Source: a virus
Length of the DNA stretch: 64,000 bases
IMG/VR virus record: IMGVR_UViG_3300028840_006907
Location: 288,001-352,000 of that record
Direction: 5' to 3' (one strand)
The notes under the pieces: generated by a model
What the model saw: the letters and a program-made list of their open reading frames with translations, nothing else
Told to the model about the DNA's origin: nothing
The model's database searches: none
In this document: piece by piece, positions 2,671-56,861 of the stretch
How positions within the stretch are numbered: position 1 is the stretch's first letter
Layout: every line of letters starts with the position of its first letter
Made by a program: the position numbers and the translations under genes

Positions 2671-3144
2671 ATGAAAATTGTAAAAGCAATGAAAAAAATT
2701 GCCCGGTTGAAAGGGGAAGTACGCGAATTAAAGAAACGCATGAGCCGTTGTTTAAATACCCTAGAAGATAATGAAGATTTTGTTGAATCCTATAAGGATT
2801 TAGAGAAAGAATTACTTCATAAAATTACGATGATTATAAATTTGAAAAGTATTATTATGAAAGCAAATATTGATAATAATATGTTTTCTGTTATTGTGAA
2901 TTTGGGTGAACTTAAGAGTTATATGGAATATTTAAAAGAACTTGAACCTAAATCGGGTTTTAATAGTTTAAATGATTATTCAGATAAAAATGCTGAATTT
3001 AAATCACAATTGACTATAAAAGAAAAGAATGATAAAATTTCTGAATGTCAAAAAGCTATTAATGATTTGACAGATCTATTGGACGATTTTAATGCTACAA
3101 CTAATGTAGAATTTACAGAAATAGATTTAAAATTATTTGAATAA
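2671..3144 (+). CDS. hypothetical coiled-coil protein
   Basis: RBS ggagg 8 nt upstream; charged helical-looking sequence; no enzymatic motif. Confidence 0.5.
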   Translation: MKIVKAMKKIARLKGEVRELKKRMSRCLNTLEDNEDFVESYKDLEKELLHKITMIINLKSIIMKANIDNNMFSVIVNLGELKSYMEYLKELEPKSGFNSLNDYSDKNAEFKSQLTIKEKNDKISECQKAINDLTDLLDDFNATTNVEFTEIDLKLFE

Positions 3145-3149
3145 ATAAA

Positions 3150-3340
3150 AAGTGTAGTTGTCCGATGAATAGGTTATAATTTAGTTCAGTTCCGATTGAG
3201 CTTTTTTATAATTTATAAAAAATACATGGTATAAAGATATTGATATTTTCTTAATAATCGTCTTAGGTTTTACAAGTTTTTAGTTTTCAGTTGAGTCGAA
3301 TATCATTGTTCTTTTTTAGTTTTAGTTGACAACTACACTT
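3150..3340. repeat. 13-bp perfect inverted repeat pair flanking a 165-bp AT-rich segment
   Basis: AAGTGTAGTTGTC at 3150-3162 is the exact reverse complement of GACAACTACACTT at 3328-3340; TTTAGTT-containing imperfect direct repeats lie inside. Confidence 0.7.
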
Positions 3341-3361
3341 CCTTTATTAGATAGGAATAAT

Positions 3362-3652
3362 ATGGGTAAACTTCATAAAGAACTTTTTAAAGGATTAAAA
3401 TGGGTCCTTATTGCTATACTTATTATAGCGTTTATGGTGGGAGCCTGGGTAGGGTTGGCATGGTCAATAGGTTGGTTTGTAAATAGATTTTTTGATTTAC
3501 AAAATTTCAGCCCTGAGAGTTACATTTCATTCGGATCTATTATGCTGGTCTTTAATCTAATATTACAAATAATAACTGTAATTATCACCGTATGGGCTCT
3601 TCTTGCCTGGGGAAAATCCCGAGGAATGAATAATTTAAAGGGGGTCAAGTGA
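3362..3652 (+). CDS. small integral membrane protein
   Basis: ORF track starts at TTG 3326, but ATG 3362 (MGKLHKEL) is more plausible; hydrophobic stretches WVLIAILIIAFMVGAWVGLAW and IMLVFNLILQIITVIITVWALLAW. Confidence 0.5.
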   Translation: MGKLHKELFKGLKWVLIAILIIAFMVGAWVGLAWSIGWFVNRFFDLQNFSPESYISFGSIMLVFNLILQIITVIITVWALLAWGKSRGMNNLKGVK

Positions 3653-4134
3653 ATCGTACAATAGAGATTGATGCTGAATTTTTTGAGCACCTTTTAAATT
3701 GTATGGCAAATCAGAAGTATATCGGATCCCAATTACCTGAAAAAGCTGCCGAGAAACAAAAGATTATTGATGAGGCATGGCGAAAAGGTATGGATATATT
3801 AAATCCTATCGTTAAAACGAAAGATAAAGCAGAGGATGCTTTAAAAAAATTCAATAAGAAACTTCATAAAGATCTCCCCCTTATTACAAAAAAGATAAAA
3901 GATGTAATGGATGACAATAAATATCCAAAGGATTATGTCACTGAATATGCTATGAAGTGGACTTCTGTAAGACAAGATTGTGAGATGTATTGTCTTATAG
4001 CAGAATCGGTAGATAAAGAAGAATTCGAAAAGTTATGTGAAGACAGAAGTTATACCCGGAATATGAGAGATTATATCATAGAGGTTTTAAAACATGTAGG
4101 GTTAGGAGATAATCTTGAACTGGGACATGAATAG
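3649..4134 (+). CDS. hypothetical protein
   Basis: 161-aa ORF; GTG start overlaps upstream stop (GTGA); no motif recognised. Confidence 0.5.
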   Translation: MNRTIEIDAEFFEHLLNCMANQKYIGSQLPEKAAEKQKIIDEAWRKGMDILNPIVKTKDKAEDALKKFNKKLHKDLPLITKKIKDVMDDNKYPKDYVTEYAMKWTSVRQDCEMYCLIAESVDKEEFEKLCEDRSYTRNMRDYIIEVLKHVGLGDNLELGHE

Positions 4135-8930: not shown

Positions 8931-10280
8931 ATGGAACAAAAATTATCGGTTATAGGATTAGGTAAATTGGGCTGTACAATGATGGTATGTTTTGCTCATA
9001 AAGGATGGGAAGTTATAGGGGTTGATGTTAATGAATTAACTATTGAAACTATTCTACGAGGTCGGAGTCCTATCGATGAACCTTTTGTAGAAGAGATGAT
9101 AAGTGATAATGCAGAAAGGATAAGAGTAACATCTGATTGTGAAAATGCTGTTTTAAATAGTGATGTAAGTTTTGTAATAGTTCCTACTCCCAGTAAGGAA
9201 GATGGGTCTTTTTCGACAGAATATGTTGAAAATGCTACAATGGAAGTTGCGAAAGCTTTGACAAAAAAGAACTCTTATCATTTAATTGTAATTACTTCTA
9301 CTGTTCTTCCTGGAGACAGTCTTCGAATTTCTTATGAGATTGCTCGGGAGTCAGGGAAAGAACTAGGAAAGGATTTCGGTGTTGTTTATAATCCTGATTT
9401 CATAGCACTCGGTAAAATTGTCAGCGATTTTTTAAACCCTGACATGATCCTTATCGGTGAGTACGATGAGAAGTCAGGAGATATCATTCAAGACATACAC
9501 CTGAAACTTATAGATAGTAATCCTACTTTTCATAGGATGAATTTCTTTAATGCTGAACTGGCGAAAATTTCTCTTAATGCCTACTGTACTTTGAAAATTA
9601 CTTTTGCGAACATAATCGCGGAGATATGTGAGAATTTACCTGGCGGTGATTCTAATAAAGTCTTAAGTGCTGTAGGAGCTGATAGTCGGGTGGGTCAAAA
9701 ATATCTCAAAGGTGGTTTGGGGTACAGCGGACCATGTTTTCCGCGTGATAATCGAGCCCTCGCCCATTCTGCAAGGTTCTTTGGCACTACAAATTATTTC
9801 TGTGAGATGACAGATGCAATAAACAACTATCATAAAACAGAAAGAATATGCAATCTTTTATTGGGGTACATGGAAGAAAAGAACACAAAAGAATTAGCTA
9901 TACTTGGTTTATCCTATAAGGAAGATACTCCTGTGATTGAAGAATCTGTATCTATTTCAGTTATAAAAACTCTTTGGGAAAAAGGAATGAATATAAAAGT
10001 TTTTGATCCGGTTGCTATGGAAAATGCAAAAAGAGAATTAGAAGGTTATGATAATATTTATTATGCCTCTTCTGAATATGATTGTATAGATGGTACTTCC
10101 GTTTGTTTTATAGCTACTCCTTGGAAACAGTTCTTTAGTTTGAATCATCAAGAAGTAATAAAAAGAATGAAAAAGAGTTCTATTATTCTTGACTCATGGG
10201 GAGTATTACCTTATGACAGAGCAACTAATAGAGGCAAAAAAGTAGAGGTAAAACAACTAGGGAAAAATTATCAATCGTAA
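8931..10280 (+). CDS. nucleotide-sugar dehydrogenase (UDP-glucose/GDP-mannose dehydrogenase family)
   Basis: N-terminal Rossmann VIGLGKLGCTMMVCFAHKGWEVIGVDVN; catalytic-Cys region GGLGYSGPCFPRDNRAL; family-typical length of 449 aa. Confidence 0.85.
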   Translation: MEQKLSVIGLGKLGCTMMVCFAHKGWEVIGVDVNELTIETILRGRSPIDEPFVEEMISDNAERIRVTSDCENAVLNSDVSFVIVPTPSKEDGSFSTEYVENATMEVAKALTKKNSYHLIVITSTVLPGDSLRISYEIARESGKELGKDFGVVYNPDFIALGKIVSDFLNPDMILIGEYDEKSGDIIQDIHLKLIDSNPTFHRMNFFNAELAKISLNAYCTLKITFANIIAEICENLPGGDSNKVLSAVGADSRVGQKYLKGGLGYSGPCFPRDNRALAHSARFFGTTNYFCEMTDAINNYHKTERICNLLLGYMEEKNTKELAILGLSYKEDTPVIEESVSISVIKTLWEKGMNIKVFDPVAMENAKRELEGYDNIYYASSEYDCIDGTSVCFIATPWKQFFSLNHQEVIKRMKKSSIILDSWGVLPYDRATNRGKKVEVKQLGKNYQS

Positions 10281-25482: not shown

Positions 25483-25567
25483 GTGGCCAGCCCCGCGTAG
25501 GCGGGGAAAAGGGATACGATAAGAAAAAATCTGCTCTGTGGAACAGCCCCACGAAAGTGGGGAATAA
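25483..25567 (-). CRISPR. two-repeat mini-array / solitary CRISPR-repeat-like hairpins (reverse orientation)
   Basis: Minus-strand copies CTTTTCCCCGCCTACGCGGGGCTGGCCAC (25483-25511) and TTATTCCCCACTTTCGTGGGGCTGTTCCA (25539-25567) match the repeat of the 51.4-kb array; 27-nt intervening sequence; sits between convergent genes. Confidence 0.55.
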
Positions 25568-47966: not shown

Positions 47967-48536
47967 ATGTTTTATAGAAGAGAATTAATTGATCTAAATT
48001 CTAGTGAAGGAAAGACTCTAATGGAATGTATGTTGCCAGGTTGTCAGGGCAATGAGTTTAAAGAGACTGTTGCCAATAGATTAAGAAAAGTCTCACGGAT
48101 ACTTAAGGCTCAATTCTATGACATCGATCCTGAAATGCTCCTGAGACTATATCAGGATTATCTCGAAGAAATGCCTGATAATTGGAATTATATCCTTCCA
48201 CCTGAACTTAATGAAATTATAAAAAGTGGTCAGGCTAGTAATTATTTTCTACTTGATATTCGGAAACCTGAAGATTTTCAGGAAGTTCGTATACCAGGTA
48301 CAGTAAATATCTATTGGCAAGATGTATTGAAAAAAGAAAATTTAAATAAATTGCCTATTGATAAAGAAATAATAATTATTTGTTATCTTGGTCATACAAG
48401 TTCTCAGATCTTGGTTATTTTGTCCACATTAGGTTACCGTTGTAGATCTCTGAAGTTCGGGATGGGTAAAAGTCCCGATGTAAAAGTACTTATAAAGGGT
48501 TGGTTGGATTATAATTTCCCAGTGATAAAACAATAG
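47967..48536 (+). CDS. rhodanese-domain protein
   Basis: LLDIRKPEDFQEVRIPGTVNI and active-site loop CYLGHTS (compare GlpE CYHGNSS). Confidence 0.75.
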   Translation: MFYRRELIDLNSSEGKTLMECMLPGCQGNEFKETVANRLRKVSRILKAQFYDIDPEMLLRLYQDYLEEMPDNWNYILPPELNEIIKSGQASNYFLLDIRKPEDFQEVRIPGTVNIYWQDVLKKENLNKLPIDKEIIIICYLGHTSSQILVILSTLGYRCRSLKFGMGKSPDVKVLIKGWLDYNFPVIKQ

Positions 48537-48543
48537 ATTTATT

Positions 48544-49032
48544 ATGAATAAGCAATCGTTTAATAAAGAAAATGTTACAGAACTTCTTAGTCAATTGAAA
48601 AAAGTAGTTAATCGGGATTTGGGTGATGAATATAATCAGGAATTAATAGAATTAAGTAGGAAAATAGACCGAAATTTTAAAAAGAGAAAATTAGTAATGC
48701 GGGTGGCTTCTAATTTTTTAAAAACTATTCTTGCTACAATGGCATATAGTACTCATGGTAAATGGTCACCTTCAAAAGAGATTTATAAAACTGAAAAAGA
48801 ACGTGGTAATAAAGTTGATAAACTTCTTTTACAAGAAAATTATGACGCTATTTGGGTATGCCCTAAACCAGAAGATTGTGTAAGATATAATAGAAGTAGT
48901 GATGAAGAAGATGATCCTGTAACACAGGAAGAAATTGATGAACTCGTCAAAGTCAATTTGAGTGGAGCTACACACGTAAAATCTATGGATGATGGTGATG
49001 GCGGGGAATTATGGATTAGAAAGGCAAAGTAG
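48544..49032 (+). CDS. hypothetical protein
   Basis: 162-aa ORF. Confidence 0.5.
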   Translation: MNKQSFNKENVTELLSQLKKVVNRDLGDEYNQELIELSRKIDRNFKKRKLVMRVASNFLKTILATMAYSTHGKWSPSKEIYKTEKERGNKVDKLLLQENYDAIWVCPKPEDCVRYNRSSDEEDDPVTQEEIDELVKVNLSGATHVKSMDDGDGGELWIRKAK

Positions 49033-49610
49033 TGATTTGTTCTGATGAATATCAATTCATATTTTATGCAGTCCCTAAAACCGGTTCTCGATCCATGCAA
49101 AATTTTCTTCAACGTTACGGTCGTCGCTCTGTAACTGGCTGGTCACCTAATCATAATAATTATGAAGAAGTAAAAAGTGATGTAGGTATAGAAAAAAGTA
49201 ATAAATATTTTAAGTTTGCTTTTTTCAGAAATCCATGGGCTATGCTTGTATCCATGTATTTCTATAATATGCATATATGGGGACTAAATGCCAAAAAAGA
49301 TTCTGTTGTAAATTGGCTTAATACATATAAAGGCGGGGATCCTTATATTCCTTATATTTTTGATAATGAAGGAAATGCCATTTTGGATTTTATGGGTAAG
49401 TTAGAAAATTCCAGAGAAGATTTAAAAACTGTCTGTAAAATGTTAAAGATCCCGATCTCAGGAGAATTGTCCCATATAGGAAAACAACATGTAAAAGGAA
49501 GATTGGATTATAGAGCGTATTATGAAAGTCCAGTACTAGTGGAAAAAATAAGAAAGATATTTTCAAAAAGTCTTAGTGTGTTAAATTATGACTTTAATGA
49601 AGGGGTTTAA
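49032..49610 (+). CDS. sulfotransferase (family 2-like)
   Basis: GTG start; FYAVPKTGSRSM (PKxGS/T) and FFRNPWAMLVSMY (RNPxxxxVS). Confidence 0.7.
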   Translation: MICSDEYQFIFYAVPKTGSRSMQNFLQRYGRRSVTGWSPNHNNYEEVKSDVGIEKSNKYFKFAFFRNPWAMLVSMYFYNMHIWGLNAKKDSVVNWLNTYKGGDPYIPYIFDNEGNAILDFMGKLENSREDLKTVCKMLKIPISGELSHIGKQHVKGRLDYRAYYESPVLVEKIRKIFSKSLSVLNYDFNEGV

Positions 49611-50823: not shown

Positions 50824-51252
50824 ATGAGCAATATGAAAATTGCAATAGCTTCTTATATGCGTTATACAGTTGTTTTAGCCAACTTGAAAGAGCATTTCAA
50901 AAGAGAACTCGATCTAGCTGGCCTATTTGATAAAGACTCCGATTATAATGGAATGATAGGTAACGCTGTTATGGACCTGTGTAAAGTCTTCTCTGATCAG
51001 GGCCATAGCGGGTTCTCCGCGAACTGGGTTCTGAAATTGTTCGATACTCTTGGTCACTATAAAACGTTGACTCCTATTACAGATAATCCGAAAGAGTGGA
51101 TGAAGGTTACAGATGGCCTCGGTAGAGATGAACCGGTCTGGCAGAGTAATCGAAATCCTTCCCTTTTTTCTAATAATGGTGGAAAGAGTTATTATGATGT
51201 AGACGATAAGAAGCGTAAGAAGATCCGCTCTAAAAAGTTTAAAAAGAAATAA
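50824..51252 (+). CDS. hypothetical protein
   Basis: ATG 50824 follows upstream stop (track start 50788 overlaps); basic C-terminal tail. Confidence 0.5.
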   Translation: MSNMKIAIASYMRYTVVLANLKEHFKRELDLAGLFDKDSDYNGMIGNAVMDLCKVFSDQGHSGFSANWVLKLFDTLGHYKTLTPITDNPKEWMKVTDGLGRDEPVWQSNRNPSLFSNNGGKSYYDVDDKKRKKIRSKKFKKK

Positions 51253-51414
51253 TTTTTCTGAATAAATCAGGTTTTTTTCTTATTCTTTCGATAATTTCTC
51301 TTCTCTTTTTTCTCATAATTTATTATAATTATATATAGTATCTATAGCTCTTTGAAATTGGTAGAAATTTACTGAATCCGTAAGCCCTTGATCTTATGAT
51401 ATTTATGTTTTAGT
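51253..51414 (+). promoter_or_regulatory. AT-rich CRISPR leader-like region
   Basis: 162-bp gene-free AT-rich segment immediately 5' of the first repeat in the I-E repeat orientation; possible TTGATC(51388)-17 nt-TAGTAT(51411) promoter, weak. Confidence 0.45.
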
Positions 51415-52313
51415 ATATTCCCCGCGTATGCGGGGCTGGGCCGATAAATCTTAAAATGGGTAAGATAAAAACCTGAATATTCCCCGCCCATGCGGGGCTG
51501 ATGCGTAATATAAATAATTTTTGATCAATTATAGGACATATTCCCCGCCCCTGCGGGGATTCCCCGAAAATATTGATGTTTTTTTGTATATATCAAAAAT
51601 ATTCCCCGCCCCTGCGGGGTTGATGCGAATACCGAACAAGTGCAGGGCCTGCAGATTATATATTCCCCGCGTATGCGGGGCTGGCGCGTAGGAGGTAAAA
51701 ATGAAATCGAAACATATTCCCCGCGTATGCGGGGCTGGTTCTAGAATTGAATGAAGCGCTGAATTTTCCCCGCCCATGCGGGGCTGAACCGACCGGGAAA
51801 TCATATCTATCCATAAATCTTGCATATTCCCCGCGTATGCGGGGCTGAACCGATACTAGATTGGGACATGTGTTTACCCAGAACATATTCCCCGCCCATG
51901 CGGGGCTGAACCGATTTCAAAAAACACGACCAGATAAAGATGAATATTCCCCGCGTATGCGGGGCTGTGTCAGGGTGAGAGGCTCGTGACGAATAATTTT
52001 TCATATTCCCCGACTCTTCGGGGTTGCCCCTCAGGAAGCTATTGAATTGCAAAAAACTGTATTCCCCGTCTATGCGGGGCTGTCTCTCCACATGCAAATG
52101 TAAGTAGTAAATACTGAATATTCCCCGGCATTCCGGGGCTGATCCCGTCTGGTAAAAACATAAAATGGTTCATCATAAGTATTCCCCGCCCATGCGAGGT
52201 TGGGCCATCCAGTACTGCTACTGCTAGGACCGTATTCCCCGCCCATGCGGGGCTGATCCTACGACTGGGACAGAAGTATTCATTGGTTTCACCCCGGCCT
52301 TTCCGGGGTCTAA
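51415..52313 (+). CRISPR. type I-E-like CRISPR array, 16 repeats, no adjacent cas genes
   Basis: Best repeats ATATTCCCCGCGTATGCGGGGCTGAACCG at 51824 and 51885 (51763 differs slightly). The TTCCCC anchor recurs at 51418, 51480, 51541, 51602, 51663, 51717, 51766, 51827, 51888, 51947, 52006, 52062, 52121, 52182 and 52235, plus a degenerate copy near 52288. Unique intervening sequences. Confidence 0.85.
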
Positions 52314-52316
52314 AAT

Positions 52317-52355
52317 AAGGATCTGAGATTTTTTTCTTAGATCCTTATATTTTTA
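52317..52355 (+). terminator. rho-independent terminator immediately after the array
   Basis: AAGGATCTGAG (52317-52327) pairs with CTTAGATCCTT (52336-52346) with one G-U; 8-nt loop; T-rich tail. Confidence 0.65.
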
Positions 52356-52409: not shown

Positions 52410-53315
52410 ATGGCAATTGCGTTTATGAGAGGAAGCACCACTAATCAGAATGATTTGACCATAACGGTACGTGATACATCCAATAATTTGATCGACCCGT
52501 ATTCGTTGGAGTATGCTGTCTTCGATTACACTAGTGGCACTGAGGTCCTCATCGGATCCCCTGTTAATACTCCGCTCAAGTTGTCAACAGGAGAATATTG
52601 GGCGGAGGTTGTAATAGCAGCCGATGCCAATATAGGTCTCTGGCGCATCCGTTGGACAATTCAAGAAACAGCAGTCAGTCCTGTTTATCAATCGGTTCAG
52701 GAATTTCAAGTAGTAGGTTCCAGTGTTGTGACGAGTGTAACCGGAGATGCAAATTTTGATGCATTGGTCCATTCTTTACGAGTGATACTCCGAGACAACA
52801 ATCCGGACCGCAACTACAGATTTCGTCCCCCAGCTTCCGAGAAATTTATCCAAGGTCAGACCCAAGTCTTTGGATTCATTTGGGAAGATGAAGAGCTTGT
52901 AGAGTATATATACATGGCTATTGACGACTTCAATTCACGCCCCCCGACTACAGGTATAGATGTGGCCAATCTTTGGGGAACTGAGAGACGGTGGAGAACT
53001 ACAATTATTTTAAGAGCAGCAGCTTTTGCATGTTTCGCTATAACAATGAATTGGATCGCTGACGAATTTTCTTATTCAATTTCTGGAGTATCTCTTGACA
53101 TTGAGAAATCTTCGAAGTATCAATCTATGAAAGAGAATTATATCAATGAATATGACAAGCTTGTCGAGGCCAATAAGAGATCCATAAAAATTATAAAAGG
53201 TCTTAGGCAATATCGGTACGGGGTGGGCATCACGAGCGCCCTGGGACCCATGAACAGACCTGGAGTTCAAAGTAGAAGAAACCTTATAAGTCCAAGTTAT
53301 GGCCCTTATTTCTAA
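52410..53315 (+). CDS. hypothetical protein (possible virion protein)
   Basis: 301-aa ORF; visibly less AT-rich than its surroundings; no motif recognised. Confidence 0.5.
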   Translation: MAIAFMRGSTTNQNDLTITVRDTSNNLIDPYSLEYAVFDYTSGTEVLIGSPVNTPLKLSTGEYWAEVVIAADANIGLWRIRWTIQETAVSPVYQSVQEFQVVGSSVVTSVTGDANFDALVHSLRVILRDNNPDRNYRFRPPASEKFIQGQTQVFGFIWEDEELVEYIYMAIDDFNSRPPTTGIDVANLWGTERRWRTTIILRAAAFACFAITMNWIADEFSYSISGVSLDIEKSSKYQSMKENYINEYDKLVEANKRSIKIIKGLRQYRYGVGITSALGPMNRPGVQSRRNLISPSYGPYF

Positions 53316-53408: not shown

Positions 53409-55859
53409 TTATATTTTATTATTTTTTCTAAGGAGAGCTATCTGACGTTTAATCCATCGAGGAGTTTCTTCAAGAGTTTCAGCCATTTGATTTCTTGTCA
53501 TCTTTCCACGATTATCTATTATGAATTGGAGCTTTTCTTCAGTCTTTCTATCTTTGGTACAACCAATAGGGTTTTTTGTAGATAATGTACCTTTTTTTTG
53601 TAAGAATTTTATTTGAGATTTAACCCATCGCTCTGTTTCATTGAGAGCTTTAGATAATTCTTTTTTAGTTTTATTTTTATAATTAGTGATTATATACTGC
53701 GTTTTTTCAGGGGTTCTTCTACATTTTGTTGAGAATTTAGAAATCTCTTTTAAATAGGTAAATTTCTCAGTGGGTTGTTTAATATTTATATCTTCAATAC
53801 ATTTTGAATTATATATTTCTTTTTCTCTTTTAGGATAAGGTTTAGTAACATAATTTTTTAATTTGTTAATTTTTTTCTTATCTCTTTTATTTTCACCTAT
53901 TAATAAGACATATTTATGTTTTCTTTCAGTAATAAATTTTTGAGCTTCAGATAATATATTTTTATTCCAATTATTCCATTGAACTTTAATTCCTTCTGGT
54001 ATGGTACTCATATTTTTAAAACCATTTTCTTTAAACCATTCCTTTTGAGAAATAATCCCTTGATTTTTACACCATTTTTTAAATGCTGATGTACGTTTTA
54101 GAGATTGAGCTGAAAAAGTCCTATTATTTTTAATGGAAGGATGTTTATATAAGTATGAACTTCCAAAGTTATTTCCTAGATAATCAAATCCACAAGCTTG
54201 GTAAATAGTCCCTATTTCAAGAGCTTTAGGATCAGCATAACCTATGAAAGCTCTTTTAGAAGTGTTATTAGCCATCCAATTACAAGCAAACCTTATAAGA
54301 CGGCTACCCAGGTTTTTCGGGGTCCATGAGGCAGTGGCACCTCTTTGAATTAAAGCTTCATATTTGGGAGTATCTTTACCTAGAATTTTGGAATATGCTG
54401 TGGGTTCATTTATAAATAATACTCCTGCGAGAATATTATTGTATCTGGCTGTGAAGCACCATTTTGGTATTACTCCAATTGTTCCTAACCATTCATATTT
54501 TTTTATAAATTGGACCATTTCATTATTAAATTTTTCTTCAGATAATGTAAAAGAAGTAGCTTTTAAAGAAGAGTGATTGAAATCGATATTTTTTTTATCT
54601 TCATCAATCCATTGAAGTTTCTTTTTATATTGGTGGCATATAAAAGTGGTCTTGTTTTTACTGTTAATTTTATTTTTTATTAAATCAATGATAATACCTT
54701 TTCGGATAGCTTCTTTTACATCATCAGACCAAAATCTAATCAAATTGGGTATATTTTTATTTTGGATTTCATCATTCTTAATATTTTCTTTTATTTTTAA
54801 TGCCCTTGGAGACGTATCATTTTCTCTTATTTCTTTACCATGCCAATAATTACCATCATATTGTACCCATAAGTTATAGCGAGGCATATAGAAATCAATT
54901 ACATGTTTAATAATTGGGTGCATAACTTGATGTTCTACAAAAGGATCAAATACAATAAGATAATTAAAAAAGTTATTTTCTTCATCTGAGGATGAGAAGG
55001 AATTATTTAGTTTAACTGTTTTATATGTTTTTTCTTTTATTTCAACATTCTGTTGGGGATTTTCAACGCCATATCTTTCAATATTAGTTTCAGTGATTTT
55101 TTTCTTAATCTCTGGAGATTGGAATACATTGTCAACCCCGTATCTTGATTGTACTGTTACTTTAACTTTTCTTTTTACTTCTTTAGATTGAGAGGGGTAT
55201 TCTACTCCTCGTTTTTCAATATTAGATTGACGGGATTTTTCTTTCATTGAGTTTAGTTGAGTAGAATATTCTACGCCATAACGTTTTTTAATAGTTTCGT
55301 TATTATGTTTAACTATATCTTCATTTATTTTATCTCGATTCCTTCTTAATCCTAGTTTAATAGCTCTTTCTCGGATGGCTTTCCAGGTCCTGTTTTCAAA
55401 GTAGAGCATAATAAATTCCATAGAATTCTTTTCATATACTTCTTTTAAAAGATCATCTTCTTTGGGTGACCAGAAGTCTTCCCTAGCAGGAGCGCTTTTA
55501 CCACCATCAATCATTTCTTGTTTAATTATTTCAGGATTTCTTTGAAGGTTTAATTTTTGAGCATTACTTCGGATGCTTTGCCATGATCGATTCTTGAATT
55601 TAGAAAGGATAAATTCTTTTGAATTATTTTCATATATATTTTTAAGAATATTTATCTCTTCGGTTGTCCAGGAATCTTTTCTTGGTCCTCTTTTTTTACG
55701 GTCTTCATTTATAAGGTCAGGATTACGGTGAAGATTTAGCTTACGTGCTTTTCTACAGATGGTTGTCCAAGATTTATTTAATTTGGAGATAATAAATTCT
55801 TTTGAATTATTTTTATATATTTCTTTTAATAAATTTTCTTCTTCTATTTTCCAACGCAT
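53409..55859 (-). CDS. free-standing homing-endonuclease-like mosaic protein (Myb/SANT x3, HNH-associated repeats, PD-(D/E)xK-like core, Mom/GNAT-like domain, C-terminal HTH repeats)
   Basis: ATG 55859 with RBS aagagg (track start 55916 less likely). Three W-x2-EE-x2-L...Y...W...I repeats. Four (R/K)(Y/R)GVExxxQ repeats. VIDFYMPRYNLWVQYDGNYWHG. NLGSRLIRF...FIGYADPKALEIGTIYQACGFDYLG. Confidence 0.65.
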   Translation of the reverse strand: MRWKIEEENLLKEIYKNNSKEFIISKLNKSWTTICRKARKLNLHRNPDLINEDRKKRGPRKDSWTTEEINILKNIYENNSKEFILSKFKNRSWQSIRSNAQKLNLQRNPEIIKQEMIDGGKSAPAREDFWSPKEDDLLKEVYEKNSMEFIMLYFENRTWKAIRERAIKLGLRRNRDKINEDIVKHNNETIKKRYGVEYSTQLNSMKEKSRQSNIEKRGVEYPSQSKEVKRKVKVTVQSRYGVDNVFQSPEIKKKITETNIERYGVENPQQNVEIKEKTYKTVKLNNSFSSSDEENNFFNYLIVFDPFVEHQVMHPIIKHVIDFYMPRYNLWVQYDGNYWHGKEIRENDTSPRALKIKENIKNDEIQNKNIPNLIRFWSDDVKEAIRKGIIIDLIKNKINSKNKTTFICHQYKKKLQWIDEDKKNIDFNHSSLKATSFTLSEEKFNNEMVQFIKKYEWLGTIGVIPKWCFTARYNNILAGVLFINEPTAYSKILGKDTPKYEALIQRGATASWTPKNLGSRLIRFACNWMANNTSKRAFIGYADPKALEIGTIYQACGFDYLGNNFGSSYLYKHPSIKNNRTFSAQSLKRTSAFKKWCKNQGIISQKEWFKENGFKNMSTIPEGIKVQWNNWNKNILSEAQKFITERKHKYVLLIGENKRDKKKINKLKNYVTKPYPKREKEIYNSKCIEDINIKQPTEKFTYLKEISKFSTKCRRTPEKTQYIITNYKNKTKKELSKALNETERWVKSQIKFLQKKGTLSTKNPIGCTKDRKTEEKLQFIIDNRGKMTRNQMAETLEETPRWIKRQIALLRKNNKI

Positions 55860-55962
55860 ATGAGTACCTCTTTTTAGTATATTACTTATTATAACAGGTA
55901 TTAGAGTTATTGTCAATATTTCATTTAATAAATATGGAATTCATTAATTTATAGGGAAAAAG

Positions 55963-56316
55963 ATGGAAATTGAAATTTATGGAAAAGAATTTGTTTCTTG
56001 TAATATTTTAAGGGCTGAAGTAGGTACAAATTGCCCACAGGGGGGAGATACAGGACATGGTGGTCGAACTATTTTAAGATTGATTGATGAAGCAGCTACT
56101 GATATAAGTATAAAAGTAGATGGTCAGCCTTTAGGTAGTATAAAAACTTTGGAAATATTATTAGGTGGCGATACTGAGTGCGACACTTTTATGAATGCTC
56201 TTAATTTTGCCTTGAATGTATTAAAAGATCATAATCCAAATTATGAAATGGATCCACATATAAGAGGTTCTGGGAAGGGATTGATACAAAAAGATTATAA
56301 AATAGAAACATTATGA
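55963..56316 (+). CDS. hypothetical protein, upstream partner of ATPase
   Basis: 117 aa; GTNCPQGGDTGHGGRT Gly-rich loop; stop overlaps ATPase start (ATGA). Confidence 0.5.
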   Translation: MEIEIYGKEFVSCNILRAEVGTNCPQGGDTGHGGRTILRLIDEAATDISIKVDGQPLGSIKTLEILLGGDTECDTFMNALNFALNVLKDHNPNYEMDPHIRGSGKGLIQKDYKIETL

Positions 56317-56861
56317 TTACAAAGATAGAATTATTAGAAAAATACAGAACTTTAAAACCGTTTGTTATGGAGCCTAATCTAGGAGTCAATCTTATTGTTG
56401 GTGAGAATGGTTCGGGTAAATCCTCATTGTTAAATATTATAAAGGAAAATGCTCCTGAGGTAAGATTAGAAATTGAAGGTACTATAAATTATTACCATTT
56501 TGATACGGAAAAGGACAATCCTCGAACTCAAGGCACTCTTCCATTTAATGCTCCTGGTGATGTTTATGCCTATCATCTGACGTCACATTTCCAGAGTCAT
56601 GGTGAAGTACTATTTCCTATTTTAAATCTTATGAGAACTTTTGAGAACAGGATTTTATTCTATGATGAACCGGAGAGTGGGGTCTCGATTAATAATCAGT
56701 TAAAGGCATGTACTGCGATAAGAAAAGCGGTAAGGAATGGTTGTCAACTTTTTATTGCGACTCATTCTTATATATTTATAAAAAAATTTAAAAAAGTCTT
56801 TGATTTAAAGACATATCAATTTGTAAAATCAGAGGATTGGTTATCTCAATTTAGGATATAA
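56313..56861 (+). CDS. minimal ABC/SMC-type P-loop ATPase (182 aa)
   Basis: Walker A GENGSGKSSLL, Walker B + D-loop ILFYDEPESGV, H-loop FIATHS. Confidence 0.75.
   Translation: MITKIELLEKYRTLKPFVMEPNLGVNLIVGENGSGKSSLLNIIKENAPEVRLEIEGTINYYHFDTEKDNPRTQGTLPFNAPGDVYAYHLTSHFQSHGEVLFPILNLMRTFENRILFYDEPESGVSINNQLKACTAIRKAVRNGCQLFIATHSYIFIKKFKKVFDLKTYQFVKSEDWLSQFRI

Follow-up and report, generated by a model that had tools for sequence, protein, structure and literature searches.

A cas-less array of type I-E CRISPR repeat mimics on a jumbo phage, a candidate multi-copy RNA anti-CRISPR

The DNA analyzed here (the window) is a stretch of 64,000 nucleotides (nt) from a viral genome, positions 288,001 to 352,000 of the IMG/VR virus record IMGVR_UViG_3300028840_006907. 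It is part of the Joint Genome Institute (JGI) contig Ga0180437_10000019 (388,651 bp), and a near-identical copy of the region was found in the run SRR6963591. At window positions 51415-52260 (+) it carries 15 repeats of 29 nt that resemble those of type I-E CRISPR systems, followed by a degenerate 16th hairpin and a terminator. This cas-less array of type I-E repeat mimics on a jumbo phage of ~389 kb may well act as a multi-copy RNA anti-CRISPR (Racr), a reading that we favor tentatively and hold to be somewhat short of probable. Sequence comparison supports a maintained RNA mimic of CRISPR repeats, namely a multi-unit Racr-like decoy, an array like the phage-borne Cracr arrays, or both.

The array is a discrete (+)-strand unit with an AT-rich leader at one end and a terminator at the other. 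Each unit is built like a type I-E repeat, in which 5 nt precede a 6-bp GC stem closed by a tetraloop and an 8-nt tail (the handle) comes last, and the consensus of the window repeats was ATATTCCCCGC-loop-GCGGGGCTG-NNNCN. The motif TTCCCCG-N6-CGGGG gave 38 matches in the window (both strands, ≤2 mismatches), as compared with 0.62 expected from shuffles. The best unit (ATATTCCCCGCGTATGCGGGGCTGAACCG) was identical at 27 of 29 positions to the genomic I-E repeat ATATTCCCCGCGTATGCGGGGGTGAACCT, found in metagenome-assembled genomes (MAGs) of Lachnospiraceae. The parts of the array are listed below, each unit with its handle and the length of the spacer after it.

51253..51414 (+), AT-rich leader (~160 nt); a candidate sigma-70-like promoter lies at 51310-51339 (TTCTCA-18-TATAGT, no more than a consensus match)
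51415..51443 (+), unit w01, handle CTGGGCCG, 33-nt spacer; 42.1 bits
51477..51505 (+), unit w02, handle CTGATGCG (G at -3), 32-nt spacer
51538..51566 (+), unit w03, handle ATTCCCCG, a copy of repeat positions 3-10, 32-nt spacer
51599..51627 (+), unit w04, handle TTGATGCG, 32-nt spacer
51660..51688 (+), unit w05, handle CTGGCGCG, 25-nt spacer (TAGGAGGTAAAAATG..., resembling a ribosome-binding site and ATG)
51714..51742 (+), unit w06, handle CTGGTTCT, 20-nt spacer
51763..51791 (+), unit w07, canonical handle CTGAACCG, 32-nt spacer
51824..51852 (+), unit w08, canonical handle CTGAACCG, 32-nt spacer; 27 of 29 positions as in the genomic I-E repeat ATATTCCCCGCGTATGCGGGGGTGAACCT
51885..51913 (+), unit w09, canonical handle CTGAACCG, 30-nt spacer
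51944..51972 (+), unit w10, handle CTGTGTCA, 30-nt spacer
52003..52031 (+), unit w11, compensated stem CCCCGA/TCGGGG, handle TTGCCCCT, 27-nt spacer
52059..52087 (+), unit w12, U·G pair in the stem (CCCCGT/GCGGGG), handle CTGTCTCT, 30-nt spacer
52118..52146 (+), unit w13, compensated stem CCCCGG/CCGGGG, handle CTGATCCC, 32-nt spacer
52179..52207 (+), unit w14, the sole stem mismatch (GCGAGG), handle TTGGGCCA, 24-nt spacer
52232..52260 (+), unit w15, handle CTGATCCT, 29 nt before the terminal hairpin
52290..52311 (+), degenerate terminal hairpin CACCCCGGCCTTTCCGGGGTCT
52315..52348 (+), strong intrinsic terminator, a 14-bp stem and then a T-rich tail, ending the array transcription unit

From start to start, consecutive units are spaced by 62, 61, 61, 61, 54, 49, 61, 61, 59, 59, 56, 59, 61 and 53 nt, and a period of 61 nt (29 + 32) was found in 8 of the 15 units. 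The last 8 nt of every unit were as the original prediction had given them (13 handle variants), with CTGAACCG only at 51763, 51824 and 51885. It had also described several spacers as shorter than 32 nt; indeed, 7 of the 15 units have spacers of 20-30 nt and 8 have spacers of 32-33 nt. In the baseline of 51 genomic I-E arrays, for which spacer lengths were taken with a 29-nt repeat, 95% of the spacers were 32 nt long and <1% were shorter. No 6-nt quantisation of the short spacer lengths was seen in the window array, and similarity among its spacers was at chance level only, so that each spacer is unique and duplication left no sign there, unlike in the related phage described below. The spacer after w05 (51689-51713, TAGGAGGTAAAAATGAAATCGAAAC) contains a perfect Shine-Dalgarno sequence and an ATG that would start a frame of 16 codons through the next repeat; it may come from a protospacer at a gene start, be aimed at a gene start, or have arisen by chance. 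A gene of 98 amino acids (aa) annotated across the array (51529-51825, -) was rejected as an artefact of translated repeats, as were the other minus-strand open reading frames (ORFs) there.

The variation within the units is strongly non-uniform. The pairwise difference per position was computed over the 15 window units, which had been chosen by register only. The outer stem (positions 6-10 and 17-21) differed by 0.013, and its ten positions hold 1 of the 63 departures from consensus (P = 9e-11); the 5' flank (positions 1-5) differed by 0.095. Positions 25, 26 and 27 differed by 0.72, 0.79 and 0.60 and position 29 by 0.67, near the 0.75 expected of random sequence, and these four handle positions hold 31 of the 63 departures (binomial P = 2e-11). 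Within the same handle, T23 and C28 were invariant (15/15, difference 0.00) and G24 was present in 14 of 15 units (0.13); thus C28 (handle position -2) does not change while positions -3, -4 and -5 do, and 6 of the 15 handles have G or T instead of C at -3. Two inner stem pairs were variable but compensated (CG to AU, GC or UG), which left 99.1% of the stem cells in the window paired. The mean pairwise identity of the repeats was 79%. In the 51 genomic arrays, positions 25-28 differed by only 0.03-0.05 and position 29 by 0.40, variation that we ascribe to the origin of this position in the protospacer adjacent motif (PMC3764190).

The window array is far outside the range of natural I-E arrays, and the pattern of its departures is unlike that of uniform decay. 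The Cas6e-type hairpin and its immediate flanks are under purifying selection, and handle positions -5, -4, -3 and -1, together with the spacers, vary freely. The original prediction had described a conserved Cas6-type hairpin, which agrees with the single outer-stem substitution and the pairing given above. Its further statement that the handle is not conserved stands for positions 25, 26, 27 and 29, which are saturated, and has to be withdrawn for T23, G24 and C28, which are kept; measured by the range of natural I-E handles, 7 of the 15 look usable rather than 3.

Two genes flank the array:

50824..51252 (+), homolog of Tad3, an inhibitor of type I Thoeris (Pfam PF25185, E = 5e-33; JGI gene call of 142 aa), abutting the leader
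52410..53315 (+), homolog of a head-tail connector, 301 aa, downstream of the array, used as the synteny anchor

The connector product has >900 homologs, many of them on contigs of 0.2-0.5 Mb. Its matches include the Tunturiibacter phage Tunturi_5 head-tail connector, gp165 of Bacillus phage G and a protein of a 485-kb uncultured phage. Because its homologs are on large phages, the carrier of the element is a jumbo phage. The two closest relatives with upstream DNA (~88-89% identical; loci L089 and L160) had arrays at the orthologous site. L089 begins inside its array, with four units at a period of ~50 nt and then a terminator. In L160, a block of ~17 units (3040-3900) lies directly upstream of the connector gene, and further units were found at 30-490 and 930-1155 (~30 in total), the blocks being split by an ORF and an IS607-like resolvase/TnpB pair. 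This pair (L160 1186-2990) consists of a serine resolvase and a TnpB with OrfB_IS605 and Cas12f-like TNB domains. Relatives whose connector protein is 81-83% identical (L081-L083, L088, L090 and L091) had no hairpin units at the locus. In these array-less phages, little intergenic DNA separates the connector gene from a nearby Tad3 or sulfotransferase gene, and Tad3 homologs occupy the same place in L081, L088 and L090.

The stems of the relatives (TCCTGT/ACGGGG, CCCGGC/GCTGGG, CCCCAC/GTGGGG and CCCCTGT/ACAGGGG) were unlike those of the window and unlike each other. A common architecture was found throughout, with an A/T-rich 5' flank, a stem of 6-8 bp, a tetraloop, YTG, three free positions, C and one nucleotide; the spacers in L160 and L089 were mostly 19-22 nt. 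When 32 units from the three phages were aligned, 99.5% of the stem cells paired, a percentage inflated in this cross-phage test because the L160 and L089 units had been picked with a hairpin finder, and 4 of the 6 pairs were changed on both sides. The covariation score of these 32 units was 0.51 as against 0.26 in shuffles (0 of 500 reached it), well above that of all slid registers. G·U pairs made up 18 of 78 stem pairs in L160, and its array folded at -281 kcal/mol on the (+) strand and at -171 on the (-) strand. Because the G·U pairs fall on one strand only and the folding in L160 is strand-specific, the selected structure is RNA, on the strand of the window array. The original prediction had proposed a comparison of arrays in related phages, and in L089 and L160 the outcome was as it anticipated: compensatory and G·U changes preserve the stems, and spacers and most handle positions drift.

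A tandem duplication of two units (98 nt, 77% identity), both spacers included, was found in L160, and its upstream block contains a similar duplication with a period of ~63 nt. These arrays grow by segmental duplication and divergence and not by Cas1-Cas2 acquisition, which also accounts for the lack of homogenisation among the repeats. A second, smaller locus of the same hairpin family lies elsewhere in the window, between convergent genes of a glycan-synthesis cluster:

25483..25567 (-), two-unit locus, TTATTCCCCACTTTCGTGGGGCTGTTCCA, 27-nt spacer, CTTTTCCCCGCCTACGCGGGGCTGGCCAC; 36.1 and 33.7 bits

The first hairpin and CTG of this locus (CCCCACTTTCGTGGGGCTG) are identical to the unit at L160 35-53, and the flanks are unrelated. 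The metagenomic contigs L089 and L173, from close relatives, both end exactly at or inside a hairpin array (position 1 of each). Arrays of this kind interrupt the assembly of short reads, and too few of them will be present in contig collections.

When 858 ORFs from the flanks of genomic I-E arrays were run against the 64-kb window by tblastn, they matched the translated array only and no Cas homolog; Pfam and PADLOC gave no Cas proteins among ~40 ORFs, and none was found in the next 10 kb beyond the window. No spacer targets above chance were found in 1.3 Mb of sequence, ~0.67 Mb of it from related phages (the window, 90+ related loci and 78 genomic I-E loci), and none in INPHARED, in PLSDB or, for four spacers only, in IMG/VR. 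Spacer matches to related viruses, a feature of inter-virus mini-arrays, were absent from the ~0.67 Mb of relatives, a limited coverage, and the 78 genomic I-E loci, which are not from the host of the phage, had no matches of pseudo-spacer complementarity. Genomic I-E spacers matching the window pointed to no convincing host. Lachnospiraceae, which have the closest repeat, were not called as host, their MAGs being from the gut and the phage sample being of another kind. Over the window, no Rfam family reached the gathering score, and over the array the matches were no more than noise (E ≥ 0.55). Nothing in INPHARED matched the 16 kb around the array by megablast, and neither the window repeat pattern nor the L160 consensus had an exact match in IMG/VR; the array-bearing clade seems to be absent from IMG/VR.

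The favored reading has close parallels in characterized RNA anti-CRISPRs. RacrIF1 requires the Cas6f stem-loop, changes in its downstream 8-nt handle leave substantial inhibition, and it nucleates a Cas6f-Cas7f complex without Cas5f and Cas8f; Racrs adjoin acr genes (PMC10651486). In the type I-E system of E. coli, interference depends on C-3 and C-2 of the handle, and changes in the handle leave processing intact (PMC3764190). After cutting, Cas6e remains on the product, as described with the mature I-E CRISPR RNA (crRNA) (PMC5965381). On this model, the array would be transcribed in infection and the host Cas6e would bind and cut each hairpin; with Cas6e retained on the product, one transcript could occupy up to ~16 Cas6e and act as a stoichiometric sink. 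Each processed unit would begin with the tail of the unit upstream, and where that tail is unfit for Cas5e/Cas8e a Racr-like RNA would result. About half of the crRNA-like RNAs would carry handles unfit for interference and would seed incomplete or inert Cascade-like complexes, as with RacrIF1, and the net effect would be that host crRNAs are starved of Cas proteins. Units with canonical handles and units with short spacers may also load into Cascade as guides, in the manner of Cracr. A decoy and a reprogramming guide are not distinguishable from the sequence, and the two modes would not exclude each other.

Because positions -5 to -3 are saturated and the 15-30 repeats are not identical, a working I-E array that needs all of its handles is hard to reconcile with the data. 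Several points weigh against a decoy. Seven of the 15 handles fit natural I-E diversity (xTG[A/G]NCCN), and w01, w07, w08 and w13, each with a spacer of 32-33 nt, resemble ordinary crRNA units. The retention of T23, G24 and C28 is a constraint that a pure Cas6e sponge does not obviously need. The handle requirements are those of E. coli and may differ in the host of this phage, the search for cas genes covered 74 kb of the 388.6-kb genome, and the picking of the relatives' units flatters their pairing. The decoy proposed in the original prediction is thus partly supported: the pattern in the relatives and the Tad3 neighbor speak for it, and the partly constrained handle and the roughly four ordinary-looking units weaken it.

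The same array could be built to guide instead of to titrate. Its RNAs would then load host Cascade in the manner of Cracr or mini-arrays and direct it against competing phages or, where the pseudo-spacers are short, repress host cas or toxin promoters or other genes without cleavage, competition for Cas proteins being a side effect. We consider this rather unlikely, although much is consistent with it. Viral I-E Cracr arrays with pseudo-spacers of 21-24 nt and degenerate repeats are known (bioRxiv 10.1101/2024.10.29.618823), and here the spacers are 20-30 nt in the window and ~20 nt in L160 and L089. Since Cascade works with spacers of >20 nt in E. coli (PMC5159557) and short pseudo-spacers are typical of Cracr, the off-length guides pointed out in the original prediction cannot be taken as a sign of non-function. 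The conserved C28, T23 and G24, the four fully canonical units and the unique window spacers, which are not duplicated filler, also fit guides. However, no target was found in any of the collections searched, C-3 is absent from 6 of the 15 handles, known Cracr arrays have 2-3 units and not 15-30, and the spacers of L160 duplicate and drift along with their units. It is improbable that the jumbo phage encodes, at another place in its genome, a CRISPR-Cas system for which the array works, perhaps one without an adaptation module, so that the array would evolve by duplication. Jumbo phages often encode CRISPR systems without adaptation or nuclease modules (PMC11656645), and the part inspected was 74 kb of the 388.6-kb genome; yet that part had no Cas homolog, the hairpins are heterogeneous within one array (L160), which is awkward for a single dedicated Cas6, and divergent handles would also impair a phage effector.

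A decaying CRISPR array taken from a host, with no present function, was the alternative named in the original prediction, and it is very improbable. Its heterogeneous repeats (79% identity), spacer lengths that deviate toward shorter only and the lack of nearby cas genes would suit decay, but under decay the stem should be hit as often as the handle, and 1 versus 31 substitutions were observed (P ~1e-10). Moreover, the stem changes are compensated, the array has its own leader and terminator, and three diverged phages have kept the architecture at one locus, with up to ~30 units; together with the substitution statistics, this rejects uniform decay. Least credible of all is a repeat structure with no relation to CRISPR, for instance tandem terminators, elements like repetitive extragenic palindromes or a phage small-RNA array cut by a phage nuclease. 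GC-rich hairpins in an AT-rich genome and a two-unit locus between convergent genes might be expected of such elements, but the best unit equals an I-E repeat at 27 of 29 positions with the handle included, the 61-nt period is that of a repeat and a spacer, no T-run follows the hairpins, and no Rfam family was matched.

Compared with canonical I-E arrays, the locus shares the 29-nt unit, the 6-bp GC stem, the tetraloop, the 8-nt tail, the AT-rich leader and a degenerate terminal repeat. It differs in repeat identity (79% versus near 100%), in positions 25-27 (saturated versus 0.03-0.05), in its 7 of 15 spacers of 20-30 nt (<1% below 32 nt in natural arrays) and in that no adjacent cas operon was found. 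With RacrIF1 and RacrIE1/2 it has in common a phage-borne repeat mimic without cas genes, a retained hairpin, a handle that is dispensable or divergent and anti-defense neighbors, and by analogy the same titration of Cas6 and Cas7 into aberrant complexes may be proposed. Those Racrs are solitary units, whereas here 15-16 (window) to ~30 (L160) units stand in tandem with spacer-like gaps, the hairpins are heterogeneous, and the handle is partly conserved.

The Cracr arrays of Liu et al. hold 2-3 spacers and carry the typical 8-nt handle; their pseudo-spacers, 21-24 nt long for I-E, are complementary to cas or creT promoters, and for the I-E array both a guide mode and Cas competition were proposed (bioRxiv 10.1101/2024.10.29.618823). 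Like them, the locus is a phage-borne, array-like transcription unit with degenerate repeats and shortened spacers, and it may similarly use host Cas proteins and compete with host crRNAs; unlike them, it has at least 15 units with atypical handles in half of them, and its spacers gave no target. Viral mini-arrays also lack cas genes and rely on host Cas proteins (PMC11656645), a likeness that may extend to this locus; those have 1-2 spacers, repeats identical to the host's and targets in related viruses (PMC11656645), whereas here the repeats are heterogeneous and no matches were found. The window locus is thus outside canonical I-E arrays by repeat identity, spacer length and cas genes, and outside the "solitary" criterion of Racrs. 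As far as the sequence shows, it functions like these systems, but it is filed under none of them and would be best described as an array of repeat mimics, long, heterogeneous and driven by duplication, that jumbo phages carry.

The surroundings of the array are an anti-defense neighborhood, with Tad3 upstream and a Mom-like gene downstream; the Tad3 gene itself lies outside the RNA element. The Mom-like fusion gene is located 1 kb downstream on the opposite strand and is kept beside the connector gene in several relatives (816-1001 aa). In the window (53409-55916, -) it encodes 835 aa with DUF7487, Mom-like DNA-modification, HNH/homing-endonuclease-like and helix-turn-helix/Myb parts. In L160, an ORF with an Acb2/Tad1-hairpin domain (9064-9384) lies beyond the Mom-like gene. 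The connector homologs often contain an intein (Pfam PF14890; L160 4113-5495, P0003, P0004, P0021 and others) and are then 460-509 aa rather than ~300 aa long. A 182-aa ORF at 56313-56861 (+) matches AAA/ABC defense ATPases (AriA, GajA, HEC-02A and PtuA models) at the N-terminal P-loop and the C-terminal end but nowhere else; it could be an ATPase that has been truncated, or it could mimic one. Rhodanese and sulfotransferase genes were found at 47967-49610. Positions 1-40000 encode glycosyltransferases, S-adenosylmethionine (SAM) methyltransferases, a radical-SAM enzyme, a UDP-glucose dehydrogenase, an E1-like enzyme dependent on thiamine pyrophosphate and a fucosyltransferase-like protein; this ~40-kb glycan-synthesis cluster is unusually large for a phage.

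A broader proposal, which we regard as possible and advance with some reserve, is that jumbo phages of one clade maintain, at a fixed site in an anti-defense island, an RNA anti-CRISPR array of 15-30 tandem I-E mimics that is polyvalent and evolves fast. Its hairpins would be kept by compensation, its handles and spacers would diversify, and it would grow by segmental duplication; it would soak up Cas6e and Cas7, possibly of several I-E variants, and some units might guide Cascade to repress host genes. The SRUFinder pipeline behind the Racrs dropped clusters of repeats lying within 100 bp (Camara-Wilpert et al. 2023, PMC10651486), so that long arrays of decoys or hijackers would have escaped it and been labelled "phage CRISPR arrays". 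If the array is inhibitory, repeat mimicry can be multiplexed and can evolve by duplication, and such arrays could be told from working ones by a criterion applied to the DNA only: a covarying, conserved hairpin, saturated handle positions -5 to -3 and irregular, short spacers. In that case, the footprint of constraint (the hairpin, T23, G24 and C28) would also amount to a natural mutational scan of recognition by the host Cas6e and Cascade. The finding bears, moreover, on the annotation of cas-less arrays in huge phages.

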